Notes: generated by a model not told the origin, from the letters alone. 64,000 nucleotides of DNA from Octopus vulgaris (GCA_951406725.2 OX597828.1:19220001-19284000); one strand, 5' to 3'. Positions 3,159 through 64,000 are shown, numbered from the stretch's first letter. A program made the numbers and translations.

Positions 3159-3200
3159 CATCATCATTATTATTGTTATTATTATGATTATTATTTCCAG

Positions 3201-3341
3201 GATTCACCATCAAATAAACTGCTGTATGCAAAAGATATTCCAAATTACAAGAAATTAGTTGAACGATATTATAATGACATATTGGAAATGCCGCCAGTCA
3301 GTGACCAAGATATGAATTCCTATTTAACAGAAGTCTCACAG
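3201..3341 (+). CDS. PlexB: Plexin exon: [47 protein letters not shown]
   Basis: ttccAG acceptor at 3199-3200, GT donor at 3342; 141 nt, phase 0; [14 protein letters not shown] plexin motif. Confidence 0.95.
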
Positions 3342-38339: not shown

Positions 38340-38521
38340 CTTAATATATTCCCAGTTTCATTTCGTACAATTTATTTGGATAGAAGAAAAGAGACAAAAA
38401 AAAAAACCAGGCTATATACCCATTGTTTATTTTATCCTCTTGAATTATAAACTCATTATTATCAGCAAAGAACTTTAAACTTATCAACGAGACATATTTC
38501 ACCTTTTACTTCTCTCAACAG
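38340..38521 (+). other. Putative non-coding first exon of VWA5A-like copy 1 (5' boundary approximate)
   Basis: Ends in CAG|GTAAGT; exon and ~260 bp of intron conserved with 50580-51030 upstream of copy 2; matching acceptor TAG at 42429-42431. Confidence 0.6.
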
Positions 38522-42447: not shown

Positions 42448-44724
42448 ATGAATAGACTAATGGTATTTGGAATCATCTGTGAAAATAAAACAAAGGTTTC
42501 TCTTCTCTATGCCACACACACGATTTCCATTAATGGTTTTACGTCACACGTCAACATCGAGGCTGAATATATAAATGAAAGCCAACACAAGACAGAAGCT
42601 AAGTTTGTTTTCCCTGTGGAAGAAGACAGTGCCGTATATAAATTCGAAGCTAAAATTGGTGATGTCCATTTAGTTGCCAAATCTAAAGACAAAGATGTTG
42701 CCAAAAAGGAATACAAAGAAGCTGTAGATAAAGGTCAGTCTGCTATTTTGTTGCGAGAGACAAGTACATCTGGCGATATTTTTGAGTATAGTTTAGGTAA
42801 TATTCCAGCAAATGAAAAGATCCTTTTACAAATATGCCTTGTTTCTGAACTTTCTTGTGAAGTTGATGGGGCAGTGAAATTTCATATGCCATTTGTGCTT
42901 AATCCCAGATATGGTCTTAAACCTGCAGATGAAAATTATCAAAATGCACCTAAACCAAAAGAGTTTAGTTTCAATGCCTCCGTCAACTGGAATTCACAAA
43001 TCAAAGACATCAAATCAGAACATCCAGTTAAGGTGGAATATCAGGATAACAAGTGTCATGCAACTGTGAGAATGGCAAAGGAATTCAGTTTTGAGAAAGA
43101 CCTTCTTCTGCAAGTGTACTATGAAGATGTAGAAAAACCACAAGTAATTTTAGAGAAAGGAGATGAGAATTCTAAAGGAATGTTTTCTAAAGATATTATG
43201 ATGATAAATGTATTTCCAAAACTCCCGCAAGTGAAACAATCTGCCGCTAATGACTATATTTTTGTTATTGATCGCTCAGGAAGCATGAGTGGAGAGAAAA
43301 TTGAAGCAGCAAAAGATACTTTGTTACTTTTCTTAAAAAGTTTACCTTTGGATTGCTCATTTAATGTTATCAGTTTCAATAATGATTTTGAATTTCTGTT
43401 CAAAGAAGGAAGCCGAGAATATAGTGAAGATTCTCTGAATGAAGCATTGAAATTCCAGAAAAATCTATATGCTTCAGGAGGGACAGAAATTCTTGATGCA
43501 CTGAAATCACTCTCTGACAAAAAACCATTTCAAAATTTCCATCGACAAGTATTCTTAATAACTGATGGTGAAGTCTACAACACAAACGATGTCATTCAAT
43601 TGGTCAAGTCACAAGTAAACAACACACGATACTTCACAATTGGTATTGGTTCTGGAGCTTCTACAGAATTGGTCAAAGGTATTGCCCGCGCAGGGAAGGG
43701 ACAAGCAGAGTTTGTGATGACAAACGACAACCTTAAGGCAAAAGTTATGCGTTTATTAAAATTGTCAATGCAACCATTTGTATCTTCGGTTTGTCTCTCT
43801 GCTAAACATGGTGAAAACAATAAAGAATTATCCTTTATTTCAGTTCCAGAAAGGCTGCCATGTATTTTCAGTGAAGAAAAATTAATCCTTTATCTAGTTT
43901 TGCATGAAACTGAGACTAGTTGCAAAAATGTGAAATTGAATCTTTGTGGTAAAATTGGTGAATCAGACTTTTCACTTGATTTTGAAGCAAGGTTGTTCAG
44001 ACAGAATGATAAAGAAATGACAATACACCGTCTTTGTGTGAAAAGGAAAATACAAGAACTGGAATTAAATGAAGATTTGGGTAAAGGCGATGAAATAAAA
44101 TCAGAGATTGTCAATTTGGGTACAGTGGCTAATTTGGTTTCAAAGTACACAAGTTTTATTGGTTTGAAGAAGCTTATTCCGGAATGTAAGCCAATGTCTC
44201 AAAGGGCTTCTTGTTCAGTGCCAGGATCACCACCACCACAGTATTTAGAAGAAGAGTTTGAATGCATAAGTTTTGATTCTGTAGATTCTAGTACTGATTT
44301 TGTGGATTCTGGTTTTGATTTTGTAGATTCTCGCTGCTTGTCTTGGGCATTTAGAAGATCATTAAATGTGAGTGATGTAGAATCCTTTATGTCTTCTAAG
44401 ACAACAAATGAGGACATTTTAACATGTTTGGTTGACCTACAAGCTTTCTCTGGTTTCTGGAATCTAGACGATCAATTGGCTCAAGCTCTCAATATTTCTC
44501 TTAAGGATCTGAACGATGAGAATCCATCTGTTAGTGATAAAGTATGGGCTACAGCTCTTGTTGTTGCTGTACTAAGAGAAAAATTAGCTTCCCAGCACTG
44601 TGAATGGGAATTTATTGAAAAGAAAGCAATTGTGTGGCTGGAATCTCAGAATATACAACCACTGTATTCAGAGAAGTTACTAGAAAAAGCTACAAACTTC
44701 ATAAAAAACAAAATGGTTGCCTAA
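42448..44724 (+). CDS. VWA5A: VWA5A-like protein (VIT + vWA + PARP4/VWA5A-type C-terminal domain), 758 aa, single coding exon
   Basis: VIT (EAKFVFPVEEDSAVYKFEA, YKEAVDKGQSA.LL, LGNIPA); vWA MIDAS IDRSGS, GGTEI, FLITDGEV, FTIGIG; NLVSKYTSF; C-terminal LQAFSGFWNL...WATAL...EWEFIEKKA..WL. Confidence 0.92.
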   Translation: MNRLMVFGIICENKTKVSLLYATHTISINGFTSHVNIEAEYINESQHKTEAKFVFPVEEDSAVYKFEAKIGDVHLVAKSKDKDVAKKEYKEAVDKGQSAILLRETSTSGDIFEYSLGNIPANEKILLQICLVSELSCEVDGAVKFHMPFVLNPRYGLKPADENYQNAPKPKEFSFNASVNWNSQIKDIKSEHPVKVEYQDNKCHATVRMAKEFSFEKDLLLQVYYEDVEKPQVILEKGDENSKGMFSKDIMMINVFPKLPQVKQSAANDYIFVIDRSGSMSGEKIEAAKDTLLLFLKSLPLDCSFNVISFNNDFEFLFKEGSREYSEDSLNEALKFQKNLYASGGTEILDALKSLSDKKPFQNFHRQVFLITDGEVYNTNDVIQLVKSQVNNTRYFTIGIGSGASTELVKGIARAGKGQAEFVMTNDNLKAKVMRLLKLSMQPFVSSVCLSAKHGENNKELSFISVPERLPCIFSEEKLILYLVLHETETSCKNVKLNLCGKIGESDFSLDFEARLFRQNDKEMTIHRLCVKRKIQELELNEDLGKGDEIKSEIVNLGTVANLVSKYTSFIGLKKLIPECKPMSQRASCSVPGSPPPQYLEEEFECISFDSVDSSTDFVDSGFDFVDSRCLSWAFRRSLNVSDVESFMSSKTTNEDILTCLVDLQAFSGFWNLDDQLAQALNISLKDLNDENPSVSDKVWATALVVAVLREKLASQHCEWEFIEKKAIVWLESQNIQPLYSEKLLEKATNFIKNKMVA

Positions 44725-45504
44725 CGATTTCTGTTTATTTCATACCTTAACATTTTAACTAGTATATCAATACTTTTACTCAGCTAATTTCTCTAACAGA
44801 TCAATAAACAAATATTTTATATATCTATAAAGCTTTAAAATATAATAAAATATAAAACCATAATCCTTATATTTATTGAACTTGTGTTATTTTCTGTGTG
44901 CAATATGAATATATGAAGTTTAAAGACATTCAAACTGAGTACTGAACATTTAACTCTGCATTGGAACTGAATTATTTAATTTTTTTCTTTTTTTAGCTGT
45001 AGGTGCAATAGTCACCAATCTTGGCTTTGCTTTTTATGCTTTTGATGTCCATAAAAGAATGGCCAATTAAGAAATAAAATTGATTAAATCAATTACATAC
45101 TCTACACACATTTCTGGCCCTGTACACGTTTTGTGAATCGGAATTTTAATGTAACTATGTGTATACCATATCCCGTCTTTTATCCACAACTCATTTTGGG
45201 CGTTGGACTGCAGCCATTCTAAGTCACAACCTAAAAGGCATTTTTTAGTTAAACACATCAACCCCAAAACTCATTTATTTTAAAATTAGGTAGTTATTCC
45301 ATCAGTCTCTATGGTAGAACAGCTAAATTATGAGGAGGTATAATAAACACACTCACACACACACACAAAATGGGCCTCCACCCTGTTCCTGTGTACCAAA
45401 CACACTCACAAGGAATTGGTCTGCTCTCGGCTATAATAGAAGACACTTGCTGAAGGTATTGTCTTGTGGGACTGAACCCTAAATATCATGGTTGTAAAGT
45501 TTTG

Positions 45505-46238
45505 TAACAAAAATAATTTTTTGTAACTAAACACTTTCAAACTTCGTATACTGGTAAGAATGTGTCACAGAAAATTCTCAAATTTTGGAAGTTATTTCTT
45601 GTTAAAGTTGTCATATTTCGGTAATTTCAACCAATCAATGACGTGTATTCAGATGAATAAAATTAATGCTGTTGTTTGTTAACAACTTCCGGCAGTGTAT
45701 ATTTCGTTTGTCGTTTTATTTATGACATATTTAATCTCAGTTACGTTTGTATGAATAAACGAGTGTATCTGAAGCATGTTTACTTTATAGCACCACCATA
45801 ATTGTTCGTGCTTCATTTTTCATTTTTTTCCGTAACCCTAACCCTAAAACCCCAACCCTAACCCTAAAACCTTAAACCTAACTCTAAAACCCTAACCCTA
45901 AAACCTTAACCCTAAAATCCTAACCCTAACACCTTAAAGCTAAAACCAGTACAAATGCATGAACAATGTCAAAAATAACAGTGACAAACACCGCCGATAG
46001 TTGTAGTTAACAAACGACAGCAGTAATTTTATTCAGCTGAATACACGTCATTGATTGGTTGAAATTACCAAAATACGACAACTTTAACAAGAAATAACTT
46101 CCAAAATACAGAATTTTCTCAACAACGCCAAGATTAAAAGATGTTTTATGTGACACATTCTACCAGTATACGAAGTTTGAAAGTGTTTAGTTACAAAAAA
46201 TTATTTTTTAAATCTGTCAGTCAAAAGGTAAAGATCCC
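45505..46238. mobile_element. Fold-back non-autonomous DNA element with central telomere-like (TAACCC/TAAAACCC)n; duplicated at ~62785-63517
   Basis: 45510-45690 is inverted relative to 46005-46210; degenerate CCCTAA array 45833-45945; further arm fragments at 48308-48493 and ~51640-51680. Confidence 0.7.
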
Positions 46239-46851
46239 CCTTCATTTTCTGGAAAAATGTCTAGATAGACTATTTTCATTTAAAAGTTATTAGTGTGGTA
46301 CACCCAAAAACTGAAGAATCTGAAATAAAAAAAAACGAAAGGACGTTACGCAAAATAATGACAACAAAACAATAGTGTTGCTATAGTATGCAAACCAGCT
46401 GGGAAAAGTTTTATCAAAATCGATTCACAGAAAACTGTGAAATCCTAAATTTCACTCCTAAGCTATTAGTGTGGTTTTAGGTGTATAGTAGCAATGCACC
46501 CCGGCGTTGCCAAGGTGTAATGACCTACAGTCACATTGTTTCTTTCTTACGGGCAGAATTAGCACACGTGGAACATGAAGCAAACAACTCTACCTTATGA
46601 ACATGCTTTTCGGTCATTTTGTGATTAACAACCCTGCAGTTTCCGTTTACCAAATTCAGTCAGATATCTATGGTTGATCTAGGGGCTATAGTAGAAAACA
46701 CTTGTCCAAGCTACCATGCAAAGGGACTGAACATGGAACCATATGGTTGGGAAGCAAACTTCTCAACTACACAATCATTCGTCCCACTATGTCTCCAAGT
46801 TAGAAGTTCATCAAGCAGAGATCTATAAAATAAATGCCAGATTGAAATACC

Positions 46852-47821
46852 AAAATCAAAACAAATCAAAATAGATGAACATCAATGGAATTTGTATCTT
46901 TGTGGTACCAGTGCCGTTGGCACACAAGAAAACCATCCGAACGTGGCCGTAGCCAGTACCGCATCGACTGGCCTCCGTGCTGTGGGCACGTAACAAACAC
47001 CATCCGATCGTGGCCGTTCGCCAGCCTCATCTGGCACCTGTGTCGGTGGCACATAAAAACACCATCCGAAGACCCGGCAAGACTAGTCAGGCCATAACCC
47101 GTGGCCCCTACCTGGGACGTAGTCAGTCCACCTGGGCATACCTTCCTTCTTGTGACACTTGTGAAGGCCTGTTGAGGCAAGTGAAAATCAAAATCAAAAC
47201 AAATCAAAATAGATGAACATCAATGGAATTTGTATCTTTGTGGTACCAGTGCCGGTGGCACACAAGAAAACCATCCGAACGTGGCCGTAGCCAGTACCGC
47301 ATCGACTGGCCTCCGTGCTGTGGGCACGTAACAAACACCATCCGATCGTGGCCGTTCGCCACCCTCATCTGGCACCTGTGTCGGTGGCACATAAAAAACA
47401 CCATCTGAGCGTGGCCGTCTGCCAGCCTCGTCTGGCACCTGTGTCGGTGGCACATAAAAAACACCATCCGAGCGTGGCCGTTCGCCAGCCTTGTCTGGCA
47501 CCTGTGTCGGTGGCACATAAAAAACACCATCTGAGCGTGGCCGTCTGCCAGCCTCGTCTGGCACCTGTGTCGGTGGCACATAAAAAACACCATCCGAGCA
47601 TGGCCGTTCGCCAGCCTCGTCTGGCACCTGTGTCAGTGGCACATAAAATCACCCACTACACTCTCGGAGTGGTTGGCGTTAGGAAGGGCATCCAGCTGTA
47701 GAAACACTGCCAGATCTGACTGGCCTGGTGCAGCCTTCGGGCTCCCCAGACCCCAGTTGAACCGTCCAACCCATGCTAGCATGGAAAGCGGACGTTAAAT
47801 GATGATGATGATGATGATGAT
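46852..47821 (+). mobile_element. SINE/RTE-tail element with Meta-like core, 338-bp tandem duplication and 5 x 63-bp internal repeats
   Basis: 46852 block repeats at 47190; GGCACCTGTG at 47371/47434/47497/47560/47623; GTGGTTGGCGTTAGGAAGGGCATCCAGCTGTA core; (GAT)n tail; related copies at 5140-5435, 10575-10785, 23945-24265. Confidence 0.75.
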
Positions 47822-48877
47822 TGCGGTCAGTATGACCAATTAAATTTTTGAAGGCGATACATCATCATGGCAACAGTCGAAAGAAAACCAAACAAAATAA
47901 TGTTTAACGACTTAATGGTTTCAAATTTAAGGTAATGGATTACTAACCACAGGATAATGAGTTCAAGACTTCGTATTGAACTTCCACTCTAAACGATAAC
48001 ACTATATGTGCATCTCAGTCTACTTGACTTCCAACAATTAACAATTGTAATCTGAAGTGGGATGGTTGGCCGTAAGAAAGATGACCAGATTTCTTTAAAA
48101 ATTATTGTGCAAAATATTCCGAGAGAAAGTATTTTTTTCCCCACAACAAAACACACTTGCACACACACACACACATGCACACACACATGCACGTGTGTGT
48201 CTGGTAACTTGAGCTACTACAAATAGTAGCAAATCTCTCTTAAAACACCCTTTCATCAAAAGAAACACACACATTTACAGTATTTCAGGGTTTAAAAAAA
48301 ATTCACCTCAATACACGTCATTGATTGGTTGAAATTGCTGAAATGCAAGAAATTAAACAACAAATAGCTTACAAACTACAGAAAGCCAAGAGAAAAAGAT
48401 GTTTTATAAACACATTCTACCGGTATACGAAGTTTAAAAGTGTTTAGTTACAAAGAAATTATTTTAAAAATCTGCCGGTCAAAGCGAAAAGATAACTAAA
48501 CCTCTGAAAACAGTGCCCCAACATGGCAGATGTCCAATAATTAAAACAAGTAATTGAATAACAGACTATACATTACAATGTATGCAGGATAGACCCCTTG
48601 CATTGAGGAAACCCCCTCCAGGATTTGATCACAGAATCTACAATGACAAACATGGCACACAAGAGATATACGATTAGCTATCAACACCAACACCAAATCT
48701 TTGGCTTATTCACAGCTTGGTTTAACTATGATAATATTATTTACACAAGGATACATATTGCATCCGTTTACACCAAATGAAACTATTTCGTTTCGCAATT
48801 AGTTTTTACATTCCTCATTTTTTGTTGTTTTTCCAATCGAAATATGTTTATTGTAGTATATCACTATATATAATGAG

Positions 48878-48941
<64 letters not shown>

Positions 48942-49032
48942 CATAAAATCACATTAAAATCCAAATCCAAACCGAACGCAAACAGGAGCGAAGAGGAGAA
49001 AAAAGGAAATAAAAAGTAAGAAAAATATCAAT

Positions 49033-50296
49033 TGAACACCAAAGCTATACGTCCCCTGCCCAATTCAAGATCACAACATACATGTACACTGCAATATAAT
49101 TTCTTTTCCTCAACAGGCCCTGCCCTATATAACATTGTCCCGAGGGAGATCAAAGAGGAAAAGGATCCCATCAACTTTAAACAGAGTCTGGATAGATTCC
49201 TTCAAAGAATACCAGATGAGCCACCCATAATTGGATACAACTCACCCAACAAGAACTCACTACTTGAACAAAACTAGATACAACACACCCAACAAGAACT
49301 CACTACTTGAACAAAACTGGATACAACTCACCCAACAAGAACTCACTACTTGAACAAAACTGGATACAGCTCACCCAACAACAAGAACTCACTACTTGAA
49401 CAAAACTGGATACAACTCACCCAACAAGAACTCACTACTTGAACAAAACTGGATACAACTCACCCAACAAGAACTCACTACTTGAACAAAACTGGATACA
49501 ACACACCCAACAAGAACTCACTACTTGAACAAAACTGGATACAACTCACCCAACAAGAACTCACTACTTGAACAAAACTGGATACAACTCACCCAACAAG
49601 AACTCACTACTTGAACAAAACTGGATACAACTCACCCAACAAGAACTCACTACTTGAACAAAACTGGATACAACTCACCCAACAAGAACTCACTACTTGA
49701 ACAAAACTGGATACAACTCACCCAACAAGAACTCACTACTTGAACAAAACTGGATACAACTCACCCAACAAGAACTCACTACTTGAACAAAACTGGATAC
49801 AACTCACCCAACAAGAACTCACTACTTGAACAAAACTGGATACAACTCACCCAACAAGAACTCACTACTTGAACAAAACTGGATACAACACACCCAACAA
49901 GAACTCACTACTTGAACAAAACTGGATACAACTCACCCAACAAGAACTCACTACTTGAACAAAACTGGATACAACTCACCCAACAAGAACTCACTACTTG
50001 AACAAAACTGGATACAACTCACCCAACAAGAACTCACTACTTGAACAAAACTGGATACAACTCACCCAACAAGAACTCACTACTTGAACAAAACTGGATA
50101 CAACTCACCCAACAAGAACTCACTACTTGAACAAAACTGGATACAACACACTCAACAAGAACTCACTACTTGAACAAAACTTGACTTAAACAAAACTTGA
50201 CTTAAACAGGATTCGAATAATCCTATCATGTGGTGCTATTAAGTTAGACATGGCCTGGACCAATCTTTGGTCGAAACATATCTAAGTTTATCTAAG
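49033..50296 (+). mobile_element. 3' fragment of a CR1/L2-group LINE
   Basis: GPALYNIVPREIK...FKQSLDRFLQRIPDEP..GY..NSLL ORF2 C-terminus; interrupts a sequence that is contiguous at 36190-36320. Confidence 0.7.
49233..50181 (+). repeat. Minisatellite, 22 x 43 bp (GGATACAACTCACCCAACAAGAACTCACTACTTGAACAAAACT)
   Basis: Period 43 (e.g. 49451 to 49494); span 949 = 22 x 43 + one 3-nt insertion. Confidence 0.95.
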
Positions 50297-50579
50297 AGGT
50301 CCCAAGTGGTTGTAGAAAGAGGTTTTCGTAATTGTCAATATAAATGTATTGATGGGCGTTGCTGGCCTCTCCCACGCCTCCTCTCTCTTTCTCTCTCTCT
50401 CTCTCTTCGTCCTCCCCTTCTCTGTCTAATTTGTTGTTGGTGGGGCACTATTATATAATCTGGTTCATCATCTGCTTTGGTATTATACTTAAAATTTGTT
50501 TTATTAATGAATTTACGTTTCTCGCTTAACCGGGTTGCTCGTACTTTTCTGTTGATGCATTTTACGTGGAGAACAGAAC

Positions 50580-50771
50580 TTCTAAGCTATTAAGATATTC
50601 AACCAATCTGTAAGATTACTTTCCACTTCATATATACGCAGTTCCGTTTCGTACAATTTCTTTTGGCAGAAAAGAAACCCGGATATATACCCGTTGTTTA
50701 TTTTATCCTCTTGAATTATAAACTTTAAACTTATCAACGAGACATATTTCACCTTTTATTTCTCTCAACAG
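50580..50771 (+). other. Putative non-coding first exon of VWA5A-like copy 2 (5' boundary approximate)
   Basis: Paralog of 38340-38521, CAG|GTAAGT donor; acceptor CAG at 59648-59650; the ATG lies 16 nt into the exon in both copies. Confidence 0.6.
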
Positions 50772-52057
50772 GTAAGTAACAACTTACTGCGATAATTTTA
50801 AAGCTTCTTCATGGACCGTGATAATTGACAAATGACTTAATCTAAACAACGGTCTTTTCTTATAATTAGTTTGTGCTCATTAGTTTTTCTATTGCTTTTA
50901 AACGTATTTTTACCCCTTTTTGAAATCTATTTCCTCGAAGTTTTTCTGTAAAAAGTTGCTAAAACATCTATATTGGACTTCGATCATCATTGACAAGTGA
51001 CATAATCAATATTTATTTTCTCTATAAATGATTTATATTCATTATTTGGGAAATGCTTTTTAATTTTTTAATTCGGACTTATTTTCCGCCCTTGTCTATG
51101 AAGATATATTTTCCACTTGAAATTATAGGATGGCGATATTGACGCCTTTAATTTCATTGCAATTCGCTTTCACTTTTATATTGACACTATTTTCTTTTTT
51201 CATCTGTAAACTGCACGTTAACCCGTTGTTTTGCCATGGGGCCAGTTGTTACCTTTCTTTTATCTTTTACTTGTTTCAGACATTTGACTGCGGTCATGCT
51301 GGAGCACTGCCTTGATGTGTTTTAGTCAAACAAATCGACCCCAGGACATATTTTTAAAACCTAGCACATATTCTATCGGTTTCTTGGTGGGGGTAAAGTG
51401 CAAGCTTTTTTTTTTTTATTTTCCATAACTTTCTTTGGATTCCTACGTTTTCGAAATCGGAGATTACGAGCGACTTTGCTTAAATAAAAATATGTTTTCA
51501 AAATTTTAATTCCCCACCACCCAATTTTTAAATTTTTCACTGATTTAAAAAAAATATTTTTTTCTGTTTAATCCTCCTGGAAACATACGGTGATTATGAA
51601 TATGGAAAAAAAAAAAGGATCCAATAATGTTTTCTTTTGACACATTCTACCAGTATACGAAGTTTCAAATTTTTTAGTTAACTAGAAAATTCCGTCCATC
51701 AAAAAGAAAAAATCCCAAAAGAATTTTTCATTTCAAATTTTCTTAGGAAACACACACACACTCTGGGCGTATATTCTGGATGTGCTTGGTGTGCAGTGCA
51801 TACCCATCGAAAATAGCAAATTCATTATAAATATTAATCTTACTTATTAATTTAATCACAAATTGTAATGGAAAACTTTTTTAATACCCCTGCTTGAAAT
51901 ATGGTAGCATTGGCTGTAGCAGCACACACAACTTGATACTGTAGCGATATCGTTACACTCATTGCTATCTTCACTGTTTGAGAAGAGTATTAAGAATAAT
52001 CTCGTTCGAGATTACAAACATCTTCGGCTAGTTTAACATTGTTGTAAACTCTAATTC

Positions 52058-52210
52058 GATTGGCTGACACGTGGTCTCTACTACGTTCGCACCGCTGGTT
52101 GTCACGTGACGCGATTTGTCTCCGCTTATTTTCGCGCCATTGTTCCAAGCAGCCAATCACAGCTTTCCATTTCTGAAGTTAGTTTTGAGCCACATAAACC
52201 TTATAAAAGA
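52058..52210 (+). promoter_or_regulatory. LTR U3 Pol II promoter-like cluster (duplicate at ~58021-58174)
   Basis: ATTGG, CACGTG, GTCACGTGAC palindrome, CCAATC, and TATAAAAG at 52202-52209. Confidence 0.6.
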
Positions 52211-52770
52211 AGTGTTCTCAGGAGGAAAATACAATGTTACTAAAACAAAGACACATTCACAAGTAGACAAACAAATGGTTTGATTAGGGTATAATCAATT
52301 TGGCGAGGAAACTAAAGAGAAAATATTACGACGATGACCACCACAGATCTACAATGGAAGAATTCACCACGTGTAGTTGAGGGTAAAAGAAATCGTTGAA
52401 CGACAGTAAGTACGTCCAAAATTTATAAAGCAGTGACATACATACATACATAGATACTTGTAGCACACATGTATATACGTGCAGAGTGAAAATAAATCAC
52501 ACTATTTAATGTGACGGACTACACTGCAAAAAAATCAAAAATTTCATTTCTGTTTACAAACTTTCTCCGTGTCTATACGCACAAATACTTTTATGTATAC
52601 ACACGCAATATTTAAGAAAAAAAGGAATATACACAAAAAAGAACGAAACATGTGTATATACACACACAATATTTAAGAACAAGGAATATACACAAAAAAG
52701 AACGAATCAAAAACAAATATTTTATATTTTACTTTTATCGTATTGTTGTTTACATTTTCTGTCTCTACGG

Positions 52771-53164
52771 ATGACCAGAACCAACAGAATCGCCATGGTG
52801 AAATCCATAGCGGCGTGCGATAAGACTGGTCGCTGCTCTAAAATAGAACACTGCCCAGAAAATCACACCTGCCACATCTGTACGGAACCCGAAAATACGT
52901 TCCGTAATCGCTGGGTCGAATGTGGGACATGTCTCATCTCTGTCTGCCTCCAATGTGCCACGGACTTTCAGAAGATCCCAGGCCCAAAAAAGAGCCATCA
53001 TAATGCTATGATGGATAGACTCTGGAAGATGGTTCAGCTTAAATCTTGGACTTTTCAGTGTCAGGCCTGCGTGCCTCCACAACCGACGATTGTGTCTCCC
53101 CCTTCCACTCCCGTGGAGGAGGCGGAACAGCAACAGCAGCAACAACAAAATCAACCACAACCAG

Positions 53165-53197
<33 letters not shown>

Positions 53198-54021
53198 TAG
53201 AGCAGCAGCAGCAGCAACAACAAAATCAACCACAACCAGAGCAGCAGCAACAACAAAATCAACCACAACCAGAGCAGCAGCAACAACAAAATCAACCACA
53301 ACCAGAGCAGCAGCAACAACAACATCAACAACAACAACAGCAACAACAAAATCAACCACAACCAGAGCAACAGCAGCAACAACAACAACACCAATTGACC
53401 AGTGCGGTTCTTGCAGAACTGCAACAATCGATCTGTGCTTTAAAAGGGGAAGTAGCAGGAATAAAAGCAACCATTCAGGTTGGACTCCACAATGAGGGGT
53501 CTTATCGGAATGCTCTGCTAAAGAACCTCCCTGTACCTGTACCTCTTGTCGCATTTAAGACCGCGGATTCTGCCACCCATGAAGTCATTGCCATTGGGGT
53601 ACAAGAAGACATGGCTGATCTTCAGGCTTTTGCTGCCAACTCAGCCAAAGACCTGGGCTGCGTTCCCCCAACGGGTGCTATCCGCCTTGGACGACCTGGC
53701 CCAAAACCTAGGCTCATCAAGTTGTCTTTTACCGACCCCACTGAGGCAACCTCTTACCATCTGGCCTCAGTTAAAGCTGGGCGGGAAAATCGGACCACCT
53801 TCCGAACACGCCCAGGCTTACCGTCCGATGTACGTCCGAAGCTACGTGTAGTGGCTTCCCTGAATAGGAACTCAGCTCTACAGGAAAGCTTCAGTCTTCG
53901 GGAAGATGGACAAATCTGGAGATTTGTCAAGACTGCTGAAACGTGGAAGAGAGATACCAGCTGGTCTGAGTGCTCTCTACCCACAATAACTAAAAAGACT
54001 ACAGCAACTCAGGGAAACTAA
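52771..54021 (+). CDS. LINE ORF1p: PHD-like Cys-rich finger, polyQ tract, coiled coil, RRM-like region
   Basis: CHIC...ECGTC..SVCLQC...FQCQAC; LAELQQSICALKGEVAGIK heptads; IAIGVQE and IRLGRPGPKPRLIKLSF motifs; ends QGN*. Confidence 0.85.
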
Positions 54022-56842
54022 GCCAGAACAACCTGCCATCCTCTACACACCATCATAAACTGCGAGCAGGGTACAAATTGTTGTCCTTAAATGCTCGCAG
54101 TTTATGCAACAAAATACATTTGTTCAACGCCTACGTCAGAAGTGTTGACCCTGACTTCATCACTGTCAAGGAAACATGGGCGCATTCCTTACTCTGTGAT
54201 GGGGTTTTCAACATTACGGGGTACAACCTCTTCCGTAAGGACCGCACTAACCGCCGTGGTGGTGGTGTGATGGTCTACGTTCGTTCAAATTTTTGGTAAT
54301 TCCTTGTGCCGATTTGAACGAATCACAAGAAGAAGTTTTTTTCTGTGACGTGCGTATGACCATGTCAACACTCCTGCTTGGCGTTGTTTATCGTCCCCCA
54401 AGTTACCATCGGGACACACAGCTTTGCAATGTCCTCCGAGCTGCTGCCAGGAAAACAGCCACTTATGTGTTTATTGCAGGCGATTTCAATCATCCTGAGA
54501 TCGATTGGGAGACCTTCCATTGGCCACAGAGTGCAAACGATTTTGTTGAGCTTGTGCTGGACTCAAACTGGTCACAAGTAGTCACCTCTCCAACAAGAGG
54601 CGACAACACCTTGGACCTGCTCTTCACCACAACTCCTGAAGCGGTTATCAATTGCACTACGGAGGAACCTCTAGGTGACTCTGATCATGCTATGATCATC
54701 GCCAATCTGGCTCTTGCGGGCAACAAAAACCTGAACCATCTCCAATCTGCTTCCTTCGATTGGAAGAGAGCAGATTGGAACCTGTACCACACTGAACTAC
54801 AGCACCCAAACTGGCGTGAATTCTACAACTCTGGAGATGTGAATACTATACTCCAGAGTATCCTGGACTCAATATGGGCAGCATGTGCAGCATCAGTGCC
54901 ACGTAAACAAAAAAAGAAGAACCGCCCCAAAAGGGCAATTTGGGAAACTTCAGCGGTCCGACTTGCCAGGAGGGAACGTCGGACTGCTGAACGGGAATAC
55001 AGGTTGCATAAATCAGACACCAACAGGAAGAAGCGGAATAAATCCTCCAACCATCTCAAGCAAGTGACAAAAAAAGCAGTGCTTGAATTTGAACAGTGCA
55101 TAGCAGCCAATCCTGACAGCAAGGTTTTCTGGAAATATGTGCACTCAAAGCAGAGACCTCACTCTCCAGTGGGCCCTCTTCGCAACCCTCACACAAACCA
55201 GATCACTGACGACCCCAAGGAATGCGCAGAACTCATTGCCGAGTACTATGCAAACATATTCACTGTTGAAAGTCAAAATGTACCATCTTCACCATCACTA
55301 ACAGCAAACTCCATAACAACTATGGAATTTACACCTGCAATGCTGCGACGTCACCTTCAAAATAAGCGCAACTATGCCTCCCCTGGTCTCGATGGAGTTA
55401 CATACCTGCTTCTCAAACGTGGCAGGCACTTCCTTTTACACCAGCTTTCTATTTTCTTCCAGTACTGTCTCAACAATGGTGCTACTCCGGAGCAGTGGAA
55501 AACTGCCAGTGTCATTCCTCTGTTCAAAAAGGGCGACCGCACATCACCTGTCAACTATCGCCCAGTCAGTCTCACTAGCTGTATTGAAAAATTGATGGAA
55601 TCGTGTGTCAGAGAAACACTCTGGAACTTCTGGAGCTCTCACAGTCTCATCCGACCCTCACAATATGGATTTGTCCCTAACTCCAGCTGCAGTGACCAGC
55701 TTGTCGAGTTCCTTGAGGACATTACTCAGATTACTGACAGTGGCTCATGGGTGGATGTTGTCTACCTTGACTTTGCTAAGGCTTTCAACTCTGTGCCACA
55801 CAAAAGGCTTATGGTGAAACTCTCTGCAATGGGTGTGGGGGATGACCTTTTTAACTGGTTGAAATCCTTCATCCTCAGCCGAAAGGAGGTAGTCACAGTT
55901 CTAGGACAGCACTCTACACCATATGAGATGTCATCGGGTGTACCACAGGGATCTGTCCTTGGTCCCCTCTTGTTTGTGGCATACATTAACGACATAGATG
56001 CCAATTTAAAGAATGCCACAGTATTGAAATATGCAGACGACATCAAGCTGTACCTTGAAATCAAGAGGACAGATCCTGATGTCTACAACTCTTTCCTGCA
56101 ATCAGACCTAGACACAATGCAGCAATGGATCACAGACTGGCAACTGAAACTGGCTGTGGACAAGTGTACCACCATGCATTTTGGGAGAAAAAACCCTGCG
56201 TTCACTTACTCCCTCCACAACACTGATATCAAGAAATCCTCTTGCGAGCGTGACCTAGGCATCACTGTCAGCAGTGATTTGCGTTGGTCAAAGCATATCT
56301 CTAAGATTGTCAGGAAGGCCGAGGGTGTCTTGGCATCACTCAGCAGGTCTTTTGTTAGCCGCTCTCCAGCCATCTATTTAAAACTGTATACAGCTATGGT
56401 ACGACCACACTTGGAATTCGCATCATCAGTTTGGAACCCCTATCTTGCACAGAACATTGACCTCCTGGAATCTGGCCAGAGACGTGCAACCAAACGCATA
56501 CCCTCCATCAGACACCTACCATATTCTGAGCGCCTTGTTTCCCTGGGCATGGATTCACTGAAGCTCCGGCGTTTGGCGACGGACTTGGTAAACACCCACA
56601 AAGTTATCAACCACCTCACCAACAACAACACTGAACACCTTTTTGATCTCCATGTGTCTAACACACGTGGACATGCCTACAAAGTCAGAAAACAATACAG
56701 CTCCCATGACTTTCGGAAACATTTTTTCACGCTCAGAGTTGCTGAAGCATGGAATAAACTGCCTGCGTCAGTTGTTGACTGCCATGACACTGCATCTTTT
56801 AAGGCCCTCATGCTTTCCGAAATCCGCCGAAACTACACCTGA
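53994..56842 (+). CDS. LINE ORF2p: APE endonuclease + reverse transcriptase, no upstream ATG, one -1 frame break at ~54290
   Basis: LNARSL, KETW, RKDR..RRGGGV, VYRPP, GDFNHP, LDLLF, SDH (APE); PGLDG, NYRPVSLTS, QYGF, YLDFAKAF, SGVPQGSVLGP, YADD (RT); frame opens after TAA 53991-53993. Confidence 0.9.
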
Positions 56843-58689
56843 TTATATATACACTTTAGATGAGTTGTAGTGCACCTGAGCACTGTACACAATTATTATT
56901 ATTATTATTATTTTAAATAGCCGTCTTAGGTTTTTAGTTCTTTTCAGAGCTAAACCTCTGACCACAGAGTTCGTCTTTGGTTTTAGTTCTTTTCAGAACT
57001 AACCTCTGACCACACAAAGTTCATCTTAGGTATTTAGTCCTTCTCAGGGCGAACCTCTGACCACAGAGTTCGTCTTTGGTTCTAGTCCTTCTCAGGGTGA
57101 ACCTCTGACCACACAGAGCATACTCGACCATGTTCCAGTTCGAAAGGCAGGCGACCACCATTAATACAAGATGTTACAGATACCTCTCATACTGTTAGTG
57201 TGAAAATATCACCACGAAAAGAACGGTTACAGGATATCTATAACTAGAGAAAAATAACCAAACAGAATATATAATGAAGACGCAGCAAAAACCAAGCGAC
57301 AGACACAACTCATCGCCAAACATCGTCTCTATCTACTAAGGTTTAATTTGTACACAAGACAACTACAGATTCAACTAAAGCGGTTAGGTGAAAATATCAC
57401 CACGGGAAAAACGGCTACAGTTGATATATCTGGAAGTACATTCATATCAAGAGAAAGCTAAAACACAACAAGTGATTCAATTAATCTCAACTACGAGACG
57501 CAACATCTTGATATGGAACGCTTACACTCCGTGTACGTCATAAACGGTAAATCAATTATCTGTTCTTGAGTTCTAGTTCTTCTAAGAACTTAGGCCACCT
57601 GCTGCTCAACTTAGAGATATGCGATTGTTACTGCTACTACCTGTTGCTAGGCTGATACCAACAACATGAACTGTGAATCAAATTCCATTGTTATTCCTCT
57701 GGTCACTATTTCTTATACTGGTGACCCCCTTTAATACGCAGCCATTCTGATATCCTGCGCGGCCAACGGTAAACATAAGTTACGGAACTGACACGAGAAC
57801 GCTGAAGAAGGAACTTTTTAAGAAAAACAAAAAAATATATATATAATAATATCAATTTTATCGCCGTTTTGTCTACAACAAAACGTCTGGCAAGAGGTTA
57901 TATGTAGCGATATCGTTACACTCATTGCTATCTTCACTGTTTGAGAAGAGTATTAAGAATAATCTCGTTCGAGATTACAAACATCTTCGGCTAGTTTAAC
58001 ATTGTTGTAAACTCTAATTCGATTGGCTGACACGTGGTCTCTACTACGTTCGCACCGCTGGTTGTCACGTGACGCGATTTGTCCTCCGCTTATTTTCGCG
58101 CCATTGTTCCAAGCAGCCAATCACAGCTTTCTATTTCTGAAGTTAGTTTTGAGCCACATAAACCTTATAAAAGAAGTGTTCTCAGACAAATATCCGTCTT
58201 AGGTTTTTAGTTCTCTTCAGAGCTAAACCTCTGACCACAGAGTTCGTCTTTGGTTTTAGTTCTTTTCAGAACTAACCTCTGACCACACAAAGTTCATCTT
58301 AGGTATTTAGTCCTTCTCAGGGCGAACCTCTGACCACAGAGTTCGTCTTTGGTTCTAGTCCTTCTCAGGGTGAACCTCTGACCACACAGAGCATACTCAA
58401 TCATGTTCCAGTTCGAAAGGCAGGCGACCACCATTAATACAAGATGTTACAGATACCTCTCATACTGTTAGTGTGAAAATATCACCACAAAAAGAACGGT
58501 TACAGGATATCTATAACTTAAGATGAATCCATTTTAGTTTCATCATGGGATAATATAGAACAAACACTAAAGACCAAAAGTACAACTTGTTGGGTAGTGT
58601 TGTAAGACACAGGAACATGTTGGAAGAGTTTTATCACAAAACTTATGGAATCCATATTCAGTGTTAGCAAAGTCAAATGTCTTCACCGA

Positions 58690-59312
58690 CATATTAAAGG
58701 TGATGGCAGCCGTTTTCCTAATGTTAGCCTCGTCCTTCTTGATGTAGTGAACAGTGGATCTGTTCACACTAAAATGGCAGCCTATGGCAGCGAAAGTTCT
58801 CCCTTCCTTCAACATATCCAGAAGTTTCACCTTCTCAGCAATCGACATCATTCTTCGTTTGCATTTAGGCTCAGTATCAGCCTTGGAAGGAGCAGCACGC
58901 TTGGGTGCCATTGCAGGGGATGAAAATGCAAAATTCAACACAAAGAAACAAAAAGAATTACACACTGCACAGCGTAAAATAGTACAGTAAACCACTCAGC
59001 GAGAAAGCCTGAAGCGAAAGGGAAGATGCTGCAGATCTGAGCGTCAGACAAAGCACCAATCACAGGCCAGATTACAAAATAGAAAGCTGCAATTCATCAT
59101 CTCTCTCCATTGCACCAATCACAGCCTGTCTTAAGTTCAAATACCCCTGTATATGCTTTTTTGCTATTTTATGCTTGTTTTGTTGTTCCTAGACTAGTAA
59201 ATAATATTTATTATTAATATTTTAATGGATTAAATGAAAAATTTTAGGTGTTCATATATATATATTTTAAAAATCTGCGATAGTTGAACTGCGTAGTAGC
59301 AAGGGATCAATG
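58690..59312 (-). mobile_element. Tigger/pogo transposon 5' fragment
   Basis: MAPKR...KRRMMSIAEKVKLLDMLKEG....IG.HF.VN.STV.YIKK CENP-B/psq HTH from ATG 58911; TIR-like TA|CATTGATCCCTTGCTACTACGCAGTTCA at 59312. Confidence 0.8.
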
Positions 59313-59666
59313 TATATAAATTTTATGTAATTGAATGGCCTGTGCCTCTCTTCACTTCACCAAACCTTTGGCAGGTCTTTGACAGATTTTACATCCTTCA
59401 ATGCATCCAGATAGCATCCTACCCACCAAGAACTCTTGGTGTTTTTGCCAGTTTAGTCGTTGACAGTTCAGATATGGTACAGACTGTACTAGGTGACATG
59501 TTACAAGTGGCAATCATGACTAATATGCCATATTTATATATGAATTTTTTTCCTATTTTGATCTTTACATGTAATTATCATCAGGATCCTCAATAATTCC
59601 ATTTTTGGGGGTTTTTTGCATTCATTTTTGTTTATTTTTTTTCTATACAGGTATTTTAAATACAAT

Positions 59667-61966
59667 ATGGATTGTTTAATGGTATTTGGAATCATCTGTG
59701 AAAATAAAACAAAGGTTTCTCTTCTCTATGCCACACATACAATTTCCATTAATGGATTTACATCACACGTCAACATCGAGGCTGAATATATAAATGAAAG
59801 CCAACACAAAACAGAAGCTAAGTTTGTTTTCCCTGTGGAAGAAGACAGTGCCGTATATAAATTCGAAGCTAAAATTGGTGATGTCCATTTAGTTGCCAAA
59901 TCTAAAGACAAAGATGTTGCCAAAAAGGAATACAAAGAAGCTGTAGATAAAGGTCAGTCTGCCATTTTGTTGCGAGAGACAAGTACATCTGGCGATATTT
60001 TTGAGTATAGTTTAGGTAATATTCCAGCAAATGAAAAGATCCATTTACAAATATGCCTTGTTTCTTAACTTTCTTGTGAAGTTGATGGGGCAGTGAAATT
60101 TCATATGCCATTTGTGCTTAATCCCAGATATGGTCTTAAACCTGCAGATGAAAATTATCAACATGCACCTAAACCAAAAGAGTTTAGTTTCAATGCCTCT
60201 GTCAACTGGAATTCACAAATCAAAGACATCAAATCAGAACATCCAGTTAGGTGGAATATCAGGATAACAAGTGTCATGCTACTGTGAGAATGGCAAAGGA
60301 ATTCAGTTTTGAGAAAGACTTTCTTCTGCAAGTGTACTATGAAGATGTAGAAAAACCACAAGTAATTTTAGAGAAAGGAGATGAGAATTCTAAAGGAATG
60401 TTTTCTAAAGATATTATGATGATAAATGTGTTTCCAGAACTTCCGCAAGTAAAACAATCTGCCGCTAATGACTATATTTTTGTTATTGATTGCTCAGGAA
60501 GCATGAGTGGAGAGAAAATTGAAGCAGCAAAAGATACCTTGTTACTTTTCTTAAAAAGTTTACCTTTGGGTTGCTCATTTAATGCTATCAGCTTCAATAA
60601 TGATTTTGAATTTCTGTTCAAAGAAGGAAGCCAAGAATATAGTGAAGATTCTCTGAATGAAGCATTGAAATTCCAGAAAAATCTATATGCTTCGGGAGGA
60701 ACAGAAATTCTTAGTGCACTGAAATCACTCTCTGACAAAAAACCATTTCAAAATTTCCATCGACAAGTATTCTTAATAACTGATGGTGAAGTCTACAGCA
60801 CAAACCATGTCATTCAATTGGTCAAGTCACAAGTAAACAACACACGATACTTCACAATTGGTATTGGTTCTGGAGCTTCTACAGAATTGGTCAAAGGTAT
60901 TGCCCGCGCAGGGAAGGGACAAGCAGAGTTTGTGATGACAAACGACAACCTTAAGGCAAAAGTTATGCGTTTATTAAAATTGTCAATGCAACCATTTGTA
61001 TCTTCGGTTTGTCTCTCTGCTAAACATGGTGAAAACAATAAAGAATTATCCTTTATTTCAGTTCCAGAAAGGCTGCCATGTATTTTCAGTGAAGAAAAAT
61101 TAATCCTTTATCTAGTTTTGCATGAAGCTGAGACTAGTTGCAAAAATGTGAAATTGAATCTTTGTGGTAAAATTGGTGAATCAGACTTTTCACTTGATTT
61201 TGAAGCAAGGTTGTTGGGACAGAATAATAAGGAAATGACAATACACCGTCTTTGTGTGAAAAGGAAAATACAGGAATTGGAATTAAATGAAGATTTGGGT
61301 AAAGGTGATGAAATAAAATCAGAGATTATCGATTTGGGTACAATGGCTAATTTAGTTTCAAAGTACACAAGTTTTGTTGCTTTGGATGAACATGTTCCAG
61401 TTGCTATTCAAACAGTCACTATGGCATTTATGTCTAAAGCCACGCGTTCTCGTAGTAAGAATGTTCCTGCAATAGTAAGAATGTTCCGTAAGTTTTACAA
61501 CAGAGTTTTACAACACTCTATGCCAATGCCAGTACGTCCGAGAGAAGATATAGCTGGAATGTATGCTTCCATAAATAATTCCTTAAGTATAAATGCTGAG
61601 AATTCAAGACAGTCACCTCACTCAGACTTAACCTCTTCAAAGGGAACAATTAAGGACATTTTAACAGGTTTGGTTGATCTACAAGCTTTCTCTGGTTTCT
61701 GGAATCTAGATGATCAATTGGCTCAAGCTCTCAATATTTCTCTTAAGGATCTGAACGATGAGAATCCATCTGTTAGTGATAAAGTATGGGCTACAGCTCT
61801 TGTTGTTGCTGTACTAAGAGAAAAATTAGCTTCCCAGCACTGTGAATGGGAATTTATTGAAAAGAAAGCAATTGTGTGGCTGGAATCTCAGAATATACAA
61901 CCACTGTATTCAGAGAAGTTACTAGAAAAAGCTACAAACTTCATAAAAAACAAAATGGTTGCCTAA
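59667..61966 (+). pseudogene. VWA5A: VWA5A-like copy 2 with nonsense codon and 1-nt deletion
   Basis: Near-identical to 42448-44724; GAA>TAA at 60066-60068; GTTAAGGTG>GTTAGGTG at ~60249; MIDAS region DRSGS>DCSGS; remaining ~570 codons open. Confidence 0.85.
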
Positions 61967-64000
61967 CAATTTCTGTTTATTTCATATTTTAAGACTTTCA
62001 CTACTGTATAACTGAGAAAAATACCTTAACATTTTAACTTGTATATCATTACTTTTACTCAGCTAATTCCTGTAACAGATCAATAAACAAATATTTTATA
62101 TATCTATACAGCTGTAAAATATAATAAAATATAAAACCATAATCCTTATATTTATTGAACTTGTGTTATTTTCTGTGTGCAATATGAATATATGAAGTTT
62201 AAAGACATTCAAACTGAGTACTGAACATTTAACTCTGCATTGGAACTGAATTATTTAATTTTTTTCTTTTTTTAGCTGTAGGTGCAATAGTCACCAATCT
62301 TGGCTTTGCTTTTTATGCTTTTGATGTCCATAAAAGAATGGCCAATTAAGAAATAAAATTGATTAAATCAATTACATACTCTACACACATTTCTGGCCCT
62401 GTACACGTTTTGTGAATCGGGATTTTAATGTAACTATGTGTATACCATATCCCGTCTTTTATCCACAACTCATTTTGGTCGTTGGACTGCAGCCATTCTA
62501 AGTCACAACCTAAAAGGCATTTTTTAGTTAAACACATCAACCCCAAAACTCATTTATTTTAAAATTGGGTAGTTATTCCATCAGTCTCTATGGTAGAACA
62601 GCTAAATTATGAGGAGGTATAATAAACACACTCACACACACACACAAAATGGGCCTCCACCCTGTTCCTGTGTACCAAACACACTCACAAGGAATTGGTC
62701 TGCTCTCGGCTATAATAGAAGACACTTGCTGAAGGTATTGTCTTGTGGGACTGAACCCTAAATATCATGGTTGTAAAGTTTTGTAACAAAAATAATTTTT
62801 TGTAACTAAACACTTTCAAACTTCGTATACTGGTAAGAATGTGTCACAGAAAATTCTCAAATTTTGGAAGTTATTTCTTGTTAAAGTTGTCATATTTCGG
62901 TAATTTCAACCAATCAATGACGTGTATTCAGATGAATAAAATTAATGCTGTTGTTTGTTAACAACTTCCGGCAGTGTATATTTCGTTTGTCGTTTTATTT
63001 ATGACATATTTAATCTCAGTTACGTTTGTATGAATAAACGAGTGTATCTGAAGCATGTTTACTTCATGGCACCACCATAATTGTTCGTGCTTCATTTTTC
63101 ATTTTTTTCCGTAACCCTAACCCTAAAACCCCAACCCTAACCCTAAAACCTTAAACCTAACTCTAAAACCCTAACCCTAAAACCTTAACCCTAAAATCCT
63201 AACCCTAACACCTTAAAGCTAAAACCAGTACAAATGCATGAACAATGTCAAAAATAACAGTGACAAACACCGCCAATAGTTGTAGTTAACAAACAACAGC
63301 AGTAATTTTATTCAGCTGAATACACGTCATTGATTGGTTGAAATTACCAAAATACGACAACTTTAACAAGAAATAACTTCCAAAATACAGACTTTTCTCA
63401 ACAACGCCAAGATTAAAAGATGTTTTATGTGACACATTCTACCAGTATACGAAGTTTGAAAGTGTTTAGTTACAAAAAATTATTTTTTAAATCTGTCAGT
63501 CAAAAGGTAAAGATCCCCCTTCACTTTCTGGAAAAATGTCTAGATAGACTATTTTCATTTAAAAGTTATTAGTGTGGTACACCCAAAAACTGAAGAATCT
63601 GAAATAAAAAAAAACGAAAGGACGTTACGCAAAATAATGAAAACAAAACAATAGTGTTGCTATAGTGTGCAAACCAGCTGGGAAAAGTTTTATCAAAATC
63701 AATTCACAGAAAACTGTGAAATCCTAAATTTCACTCCTAAGCTATTAGTGTGGTTTTAGGTGTATAGTAGCAATGCACCCCGGCGTTGCCCAGGTGTAAT
63801 GACCTACAGTCACATTGTTTCTTTCTTACGGGCAGAATTAGCACACGTGGAGCATGAAGCAAACAACTCTACCTTATGAACATGCTTTTCGGTCATTTTG
63901 TGATTAACAACCCTGCAGTTTCCGTTTACCAAATTCAGTCAGATAACTGTGGTTGATCTAGGGGCTATAGTAGAAAACACTTGCCCAAGCTACCATGCAA
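61967..64000 (+). repeat. Segmental duplication of the 3' flank of VWA5A copy 1 (44725-46720), offset ~17.28 kb
   Basis: Near base-for-base identity including TE remnants; runs off the window end. Confidence 0.95.

Follow-up and report, generated by a model that had tools for sequence, protein, structure and literature searches.

The stretch of Octopus vulgaris DNA analysed here (GCA_951406725.2 OX597828.1:19220001-19284000; 64,000 nucleotides, hereafter the window) carries two tandem copies of a VWA5A gene, the start of copy 2 (59667) lying 17,219 bp 3' of that of copy 1. The copies are about 97% identical overall outside a single loop, for which each has its own version on a nearly identical scaffold. 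The features on which this comparison is based are the following:

42448..44724, + strand: VWA5A copy 1, an intact single-exon coding sequence of 758 aa with VIT (residues 25-130) and vWA (271-422) domains, the loop and a C-terminal helical domain (CTD)
43270..43284, + strand: motif DRSGS of the MIDAS (metal ion-dependent adhesion site), with D275, S277 and S279, complemented by T346 and D373
44158..44412, + strand: loop A1, acidic, 85 aa, predicted disordered (D+E 14, K+R 8, net charge -6)
44413..44724, + strand: CTD of copy 1, identical to copy 2 over 44471-44724, a probable recent conversion tract
44725..46721, + strand: 3' flank of copy 1, common to copy 2 at about 97-99% identity, with one 37-bp indel
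59667..61966, + strand: VWA5A copy 2, broken in the window by a stop codon at 60066-60068 and a 1-bp deletion at 60249
61376..61654, + strand: loop B, basic, 93 aa, predicted disordered (D+E 6, K+R 13, net charge +7)
61655..64000, + strand: CTD of copy 2 and its 3' flank, which extends beyond the window end

A preliminary description of the locus had placed the two loops, there called cassettes, at exactly these coordinates, lengths and boundaries, and both are indeed in frame and free of stop codons. It had also called them essentially unalignable. This holds locally, where 1397 of 2000 shuffled proteins and 547 of 1000 shuffled DNA sequences reach the score of the real pair. By a lenient global score the DNA pair ranks a little above chance (matched by 7/500 shuffles), which may be a trace of old homology. 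Their opposite charge, which the same description stressed, is true of the pair but not special among 196 non-redundant loops of the family, 44 of which have a net charge of -5 or less and 80 of +5 or more.

The flanks behave very differently from the loops. Only 45 of 1710 coding bases differ 5' of the loop and 3 of 312 on its 3' side, and identity runs on for at least 2 kb beyond the stop codon. In the 5' coding part, 21 codons differ silently and 21 change an amino acid; as neutral change would give silent and changing differences at about 1:3, this balance points, from codon comparison, to purifying selection on the scaffold.

Each loop is also internally repetitive, and the listed variants of loop B are concentrated in one short segment:

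44275..44331, + strand: 21-bp tandem repeat in loop A1, encoding three DxVD-S motifs
61418..61443, + strand: hot spot in loop B, with 9 of the 10 listed loop variants within 26 bp, nearly all amino-acid changing
61453..61515, + strand: 20-bp and 13-bp tandem duplications in loop B, each frameshifting on its own and jointly adding 33 bp

Change within the loops has thus proceeded by short duplications and point changes, while whole copies are born and broken. The basic Arg/Met/Phe stretch of loop B is read from the 20-bp and 13-bp duplications in shifted frames, in an order of events that we infer, and the origin by shifted duplication is limited to this short internal stretch. The possibility that the whole of loop B is a frameshifted loop A1 was considered and rejected, since, in either loop, each of the five remaining frames is interrupted by stops and none resembles the partner. 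Capture of loop B from another gene was likewise dropped: a search of longer proteins returned only O. sinensis VWA5A (3 matches among 22 candidates, which is weak evidence), and the protein atlas gave no usable match. Neither loop has a second copy within the window.

The DxVD-S motif of loop A1 is one that we take, by consensus, to be caspase-3-like, the caspase-3/7 consensus being DxxD followed by a small residue. It occurs in 8 of the 8 acidic octopus loops examined, three times in A1, and lies 30-31 residues before the CTD in six of the eight, in loop types that are mostly only 27-65% identical to each other. These are homologous copies of one motif and not independent events. The motif is lacking in loop B, in the Argonauta loop P0011 and in the short loop P0012.

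The preliminary description was right about the near-identical flanks but missed the two lesions of copy 2. The stop is codon 134 of copy 2, and the annotated 558-aa product P0019 is included in the open frame from 60251. O. sinensis P0007 has the same start Met, which had suggested a shared frameshift. All four public sequencing runs compared carry the intact letters at 60066 and 60248, and a contig of run X1 covering 59677-61400 (with 8 other letters) has copy-2-type letters and an open frame that continues into loop B. As the lesions appear in none of the four runs, they may represent a private allele or an assembly error, contigs being prone to drop rare variants. Contigs cross from the scaffold into loop B in all four runs. 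At the loop boundaries, loose contig ends lead into loop A1 in X7 and X13, into an A4-like start, and into two more loop ends unmatched among the collected proteins. Other loose ends, found in X6 and X13 at position 61195, are exact matches to window positions 58657-58686, near a shared TTCAC, and in X7 position 62100 is joined back to 61195; the joint between 61195 and 58657-58686 may reflect either a truncated member of the array or an allele of copy 2 with 2.5 kb deleted.

Beyond the window, octopus proteins of this type carry at least six long loop types and one short one:

A1: copy 1, O. bimaculoides P0002
A2 (doubled loop): P0003, P0017
A3: P0001, P0006
A4: P0004, P0010
A5: P0005, P0018
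B: copy 2, O. sinensis P0007, P0008, P0009, P0020
Short loop of 42 aa: P0012, P0013

Among the Octopus long-loop proteins, scaffolds are 85-100% identical, whereas loops of different types are only 13-65% identical. Within a type, similarity extends across species: loop A1 is 78% identical to that of O. bimaculoides P0002, and loop B 91-95% identical to those of the four O. sinensis proteins. Five loop types appear to lie on one O. vulgaris chromosome together with P0019 (CAI9733737, 742, 743, 744). A constant scaffold with an exchangeable loop, as first proposed from the window alone, is therefore borne out by an array with many loop types. In the doubled loops of P0003, P0017 and P0185, the beginning of the CTD recurs in decayed form (EILPCM), a footprint of unequal crossing-over.

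The loops and the scaffold have different histories. The copy 1 CTD groups with the B family (support 98/95), whereas the copy 1 loop groups with O. bimaculoides A1 (99/96). In approximately unbiased (AU) tests, a grouping of copy 1 with A1 was rejected on the CTD (p 0.010) and a grouping of copy 1 with B was rejected on the loop (p 0.009); these tests used 11 of 18 rows, near-duplicates and short-loop genes being omitted, with groups named post hoc and a poor loop alignment. For the 87 residues preceding the loop, tree building gave no resolved grouping. Tracts of near-perfect identity between the two copies (no difference in 254 bp at 44471-44724, one in 409 bp at 43589-43997, and a longest identical run of 320 bp, p 0.007) contrast with a more divergent stretch immediately before the loop:

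43998..44157, + strand: stretch adjoining the loop and spared from homogenisation, with 11 differences over 160 bp (permutation p 0.0009, for an interval chosen post hoc)

O. bimaculoides genes with different loops have species-specific scaffold residues in common (493, 541, 690 and 753). The conflict between loop and scaffold trees shows, at the level of sequence, that old loop lineages have persisted while the scaffold around them was homogenised by conversion or unequal crossing-over, and that it is mostly the scaffold, not the loop, that moves between copies.

The gene conversion or unequal crossover suggested earlier for a cephalopod array thus finds support in conflicting trees and conversion tracts, but it was put the other way round, with the loop as the exchanged part, and it is no cephalopod peculiarity. 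Identities before, within and after the loop are 97/46/99% in a Potamilus pair, 90-94/37-54/88-91% in Oculina pairs and 80-97/34-82/70-98% in bat pairs. The earlier caveat, that the linker is poorly conserved in VWA5A and PARP4 generally, agrees with the variation of the loop throughout the family; the contrast with near-identical flanks, which had been considered the striking part, is also family-wide.

Variants among the runs were analysed from 40 of 63 variant rows, 37 of the 40 being coding and the stop site being left out. Loop B had 10 amino-acid-changing and no silent variants when these are taken singly, or 9:1 in context, against 14:12 in the scaffold (Fisher p 0.015 for 10:0). These counts fit selection or relaxed constraint.

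By every feature tested, the octopus genes are ordinary members of the VWA5A family. In copy 1, Pfam recognises a VIT domain at 25-130 (E 1e-27) and VWA_3 at 271-422 (E 2e-24), and no other domain. The MIDAS, which reads DCSGS in copy 2, is invariant in 98 of 98 aligned homologues, and of the 236 proteins in which the loop was located, 229 have DxSxSM, five of the seven misses being fragmentary octopus-type models without a vWA domain. The CTD can be aligned across the family but alone gave no sequence match in the PDB. AlphaFold modelled copy 1 with a predicted template modelling score (pTM) of 0.84, the per-residue confidence (pLDDT) falling below 50 only at residues 1-5 and 578-654, and with the CTD helices (657-757) at high pLDDT; for the B-type protein P0020, pTM was 0.82 and the loop (577-662) was again below 50. 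The loop is therefore predicted to be disordered and exposed, as the preliminary description had anticipated. Foldseek placed ITIH1 (6fpz/6fpy, E 7e-32) first, followed by a Trypanosoma brucei flagellar vWA protein, and the VWA5A family profile aligned to ITIH4 269-606 (E 9e-32) and to PARP4 610-1189, weakly also to 1559-1639. By profile, the loop falls just after ITIH4 residue 606 and between PARP4 residue 1189 and about 1570.

A likeness to the bait region of alpha-2-macroglobulin and thioester-containing proteins (TEPs) had been proposed at the outset. These have in common with the octopus proteins a variable bait between conserved domains, and the ITIH4 bait has itself been likened to that of alpha-2-macroglobulin in the relevant sections of PMC7793589. 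They differ by an unrelated fold, a thioester and secretion, none of which was found in the octopus proteins: there is no CxEQ thioester motif, no A2M Pfam family and no A2M or C3 among the fold matches listed, and a crude hydropathy check found no sign of a signal peptide (best 10-residue mean 1.68, with residues 17-29 modelled as a beta-strand). The octopus proteins are therefore probably cytosolic and not of the alpha-2-macroglobulin/TEP class. The ITIH C-terminal Pfam domain is also absent, the octopus CTD being of the VWA5A type, so that the genes are neither alpha-2-macroglobulins nor ITIHs. The idea of a bait nevertheless survives, with a closer precedent in ITIH4, which has the same fold.

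Three known systems come nearest. According to the sections of PMC10539598 on clade B2, human VWA5A/BCSC-1 and Dictyostelium Vwa1-5 have the same succession of VIT, hybrid, MIDAS-bearing vWA, three-helix bundle, disordered loop and helical CTD and the same lineage-specific expansion, and are without a signal peptide, of which the octopus proteins show no sign in the hydropathy check; in AlphaFold models of Vwa1 and human VWA5A the CTD, which ITIH1 lacks, is tethered through the long disordered loop and lies against the vWA domain, away from the MIDAS. Autoinhibition by the CTD is proposed there for the intracellular VIT-vWFA clade, and those sections do not treat the loop as functional. ITIH4, in the parts of PMC7793589 that describe it, has the VIT-vWA fold, an intact MIDAS and a long, variable, protease-susceptible region directly after the scaffold; it is cut within residues 633-713 and then forms a MIDAS-dependent inhibitory complex, and VWA5A is not mentioned in these parts. 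Unlike the octopus proteins, which look cytosolic and form an array with different loops, it is secreted into the plasma, and its C-terminal domain is unrelated to theirs. In PARP4, exon 30 (residues 1223-1582) encodes a positionally equivalent, disordered, fast-evolving region between conserved flanks, which is reported, in the pertinent part of PMC4038475, to be subject to recurrent positive selection among primates and bats and is proposed to be a host-pathogen interface. PARP4 differs in its ADP-ribosyltransferase domain and its membership of the vault, and what is proposed for it is direct recognition of viral proteins, not a bait (PMC4038475, same part); positive selection was demonstrated there, while the signal in the octopus loop is limited to variant counts.

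A further likeness concerns plant NLRs with integrated decoys and the protease tripwires NLRP1 and CARD8, which carry copies of host targets, or cleavable disordered regions, within a conserved sensor. They differ from the octopus proteins by their NB-ARC or NACHT, CARD or death-fold output domains, and no NLR nucleotide-binding or death-fold domain was found in Pfam scans of the window proteins and 139 representatives.

What the loop holds elsewhere in the family was surveyed in 107 further homologues (precomputed Pfam for all, 26 rescanned, P0062 searched) and 139 new representatives. A recognised domain of a host protein lies in the loop of 13 of about 246 homologues. In Mytilus californianus P0050 this is a whole ubiquitin ending in LRLRGG (E 2e-20; 47/76 identical to ubiquitin by hand count), and in Haliotis asinina P0062 a full histone H4 (E 1e-25; about 53/100 identical by hand count). 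A synaptobrevin motif lies in the loops of P0040, P0042, P0048 and P0053, two above and two below the Pfam cut-off, P0048 also matching VAMP in the PDB. The new representatives contributed seven cases: actin (P0173), ubiquitin (P0264), synaptobrevin (P0230, P0260 and P0247, the loop start of the last not being located by profile) and nucleoporin FG repeats (P0135 and P0143, the latter also with the Nup98 GLEBS motif). On a FastTree phylogeny of scaffolds, bearers of SNARE inserts occupy four separate positions and those of ubiquitin inserts two, the 84 scaffolds having been chosen to include insert bearers and the tree having local supports only, without a clade test. One SNARE insert is common to several Mytilus species and a Logan record. 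Pieces of host proteins have therefore been captured recurrently by the loops of homologues.

Short motifs were also counted in the 196 non-redundant loops, against local shuffles and reversed sequences; all of these motifs were chosen post hoc. G[GS]LFG occurs in 8 loops (0.3 expected, 0 reversed), [DE]3-MG-[FLM] in 3 (0.1; 0), L[RK]GG in 6 (1.6; 2) and DxVD[GS] in 8 (1.3; 1), six of these eight being octopus loops. Plain LxGG was dropped for lack of direction-specificity (25 forward, 20 reversed), as was DxxD-G/S/A outside octopus, which shows no enrichment under local shuffles (14/200). Candidate mimics of t-SNAREs, the RNA polymerase II C-terminal repeat, WH2 and the ribosomal stalk found no confirmation in Pfam or the PDB, and exist as motif counts only.

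Several further observations concern these inserts. The P0062 (isoform X2) loop is identical to that of P0037 (X4) but for the H4 piece, absent from P0037, which looks like an alternatively spliced exon; Branchiostoma isoforms P0059, P0061 and P0069-P0071 also differ by loop blocks. Abalone and amphioxus thus have isoform pairs suggesting alternative splicing, in contrast to octopus, with its single-exon coding sequences, paralogs and recombination. The actin in the P0173 loop (residues about 621-1060) is circularly permuted, its N-terminal segment following the C-terminal part, with both junctions at the GVMVGMG motif of the DNase-binding loop. Bat-clade VWA5A loops P0072, P0079, P0091, P0093 and P0097 have LRGG/LKGG motifs resembling the ubiquitin end, and bat loops vary strongly (34-82% identity) between scaffolds that are 80-97% identical. 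Among distant homologues, 4 of the 139 representatives have an N-terminal UBA domain and one a ZZ finger (P0187, P0244, P0249, P0265 and P0255), in keeping with the reported connection between Vwa1 and ubiquitin ligases.

The remaining features of the locus concern the transcription of the two copies and the surrounding sequence. Identity between copies 1 and 2 begins at the start codon, the introns directly upstream being unrelated, and resumes in two blocks farther 5':

38339..38521, + strand: probable non-coding exon 1 of copy 1, homologous to 50625-51032, with splice donor ACAG|GTAAG at 38518 and an approximate 5' start
50625..50771, + strand: probable non-coding exon 1 of copy 2, with the same splice donor ACAG|GTAAG, at 50768

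In contigs of runs X1, X7 and X13, ACAG precedes the copy-1-type exon-2 start, where the DNA run X6 has the genomic CTAG; this difference suggests a spliced non-coding exon 1, so that the upstream block probably is that exon, although to regard X7 and X13 as RNA is a guess, none of the three runs being recorded as such. Inside the probable intron 1 of copy 2 lies a long interspersed nuclear element (LINE) retrotransposon (52510-56842, +), with a 503-aa ORF1-like frame lacking a Pfam match and an 863-aa frame with endonuclease and reverse transcriptase. Nearby, 51940-52221 is duplicated at 57903-58185 and 56915-57245 at 58188-58518. A 43-bp tandem repeat, strongly strand-skewed, occupies 49232-50181 (22 copies, 98% matches), and both 3' flanks contain an inverted-repeat element (45509-46208 and 62788-63487) with a degenerate telomere-like AACCCT array in its middle. 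Elsewhere in the window are a plexin cytoplasmic-domain exon (3120-3464, +), a Mos1-type transposase helix-turn-helix (HTH) remnant (22534-22962, -) and a second transposase-like HTH remnant (58567-58995, -).

We favour, by a little over even chances, the interpretation of this locus as part of a tandem array of cytosolic VWA5A genes with an exchangeable bait or decoy loop, working by analogy with the bait-and-trap of ITIH4. The CTD would rest on the vWA domain, tethered by the loop, until the loop is recognised by an enzyme, which would cleave or bind it. A caspase-type protease would be a candidate for the acidic DxVD-S loops, and a basic-residue protease for loop B; in other species, candidates would be enzymes acting on ubiquitin, SNAREs, actin, histones or nucleoporins. 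This would set the CTD free, and the vWA domain with its Mg-MIDAS would capture the enzyme, as ITIH4 does in plasma, or start a downstream response. Many loop types on one scaffold would widen the range of enzymes caught, and pathogen enzymes would be the likeliest selective force. The innate-immunity or protease-sensing role raised in the preliminary description is a candidate function.

A broader version, which we put forward tentatively and consider somewhat less likely than not, would make VWA5A an ancient, eukaryote-wide cytosolic decoy trap, the loop repeatedly capturing targets of pathogen enzymes and springing an ITIH4-like vWA trap. Such enzymes commonly attack ubiquitin ends, SNAREs, actin, nucleoporins and the ribosomal stalk, and the captured set would comprise ubiquitin ends, SNAREs, actin, histone H4, nucleoporin FG repeats, ribosomal-stalk-like tails and caspase sites; octopuses would have diversified their baits by recombining loops into a homogenised scaffold. 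A literature search, with most subscription journals outside its reach, found no paper on octopus VWA5A and no described host-protein inserts or bait role for the VWA5A loop, and the part of PMC9087173 available held nothing relevant.

A number of results weigh against a bait. Neither octopus loop matches a known protein in Pfam, protein searches or the protein atlas, and their sole bait signal is a short motif picked post hoc, DxVD-S, which is not enriched outside octopus (2/189 against 0.9 in shuffles). About 95% of the family's loops have no recognised host domain, most insert-bearing proteins are unverified gene models, and of the 24 proteins scanned, most of them chosen by eye as likely mimics, 11 were suspected look-alikes that Pfam did not confirm; the ribosomal-stalk look-alike P0188 had no match in the PDB. 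The low pLDDT could also be explained by poor alignment depth, and the link of the loop to the C-terminal part of PARP4 is weak (domain i-E 2.2). The 10:0 variant count, drawn from 40/63 rows and mixing alleles with paralogs, is compatible with relaxed constraint. Finally, relatives of these proteins have other roles: chain 4s of PDB 9e5c, a VIT-vWA protein that aligns over much of the length, belongs to the structure of the T. brucei flagellar doublet, where its role is non-immune, and Vwa1 of Dictyostelium functions in development.

A neutral spacer is an explanation that we find unlikely but take seriously. The loop would need only to be long and disordered, drifting by indels and substitutions, while conversion polishes the flanks and leaves a divergent island, and the host pieces would be tolerated accidents or gene-model errors. 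Variability of the loop throughout the family, variant counts that fit neutrality and a copy 2 broken in the window are all as such drift would have it, as is the rise in divergence beside the loop, expected because heterology blocks conversion. It accounts less well for loops that are in frame in every case examined, including one with two compensating frameshifting duplications, or for a DxVD-S motif that is kept at a fixed distance and triplicated. The inserts, moreover, come from a narrow set of hub proteins and have diverged with key ends kept, as in the LRLRGG of the P0050 ubiquitin, and the sharing of one SNARE insert among Mytilus species and the Logan record is likewise difficult to reconcile with accident. 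The equivalent region of PARP4 is positively selected, as reported in the part of PMC4038475 cited above.

Less probable still, the loop might be an endogenous address or switch that targets or regulates each paralog in the host's own cell, with no need for a pathogen. Membranes, pores, cytoskeleton or chromatin would be the docking sites to which SNARE, FG, poly-proline, actin and histone pieces bring the protein, and host caspases would relieve autoinhibition through DxVD-S in apoptosis or development. This agrees with the caspase-like motif being that of a host enzyme, with the UBA or ZZ domains of some homologues, with the flagellar structural role of one family member and with Dictyostelium Vwa1, which works with an F-box protein in development and for which autoinhibition by the CTD was proposed (PMC10539598, in the sections mentioned). 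It leaves unexplained the rapid turnover of loops, the expansion of arrays in many lineages, the trans-species loop lineages, the loop B hot spot and the divergence of inserts from highly conserved sources such as H4. An assembly chimera or collapsed-repeat artefact, which the repetitive array and lesions seen in no run might suggest, is scarcely credible, since both loops recur on the same scaffold in other octopus species (B in four O. sinensis proteins, A1 in O. bimaculoides) and in the run contigs; neither this nor a family of only two copies, the outcomes that the preliminary description had named as fatal to its proposal, is what the data show.

VWA5A, a protein of poorly understood function, has been conserved from amoebae to humans. 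With nearly the same scaffold and two loops, the octopus pair offers a natural loop-swap experiment, though on its own it would count as a modest instance of concerted evolution about a variable linker. The weight of the case comes from the family, where sequence comparison makes the loop the positional counterpart of the ITIH4 bait and of the selected exon of PARP4, repeatedly taking up pieces of hub host proteins; this turns a variable linker into a specific hypothesis with named substrates. If this is wrong, the locus would still illustrate cleanly how concerted evolution proceeds around an island of divergence. If true, the bait interpretation would give the immunity of invertebrates and vertebrates a further intracellular system of sensing or inhibition, and would link the ITIH4 bait and the PARP4 selected exon as one ancient design. 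The broader version would, in addition, provide an animal counterpart of plant integrated decoys, together with a testable function for the orphan tumour-suppressor candidate VWA5A and for the selected region of PARP4.

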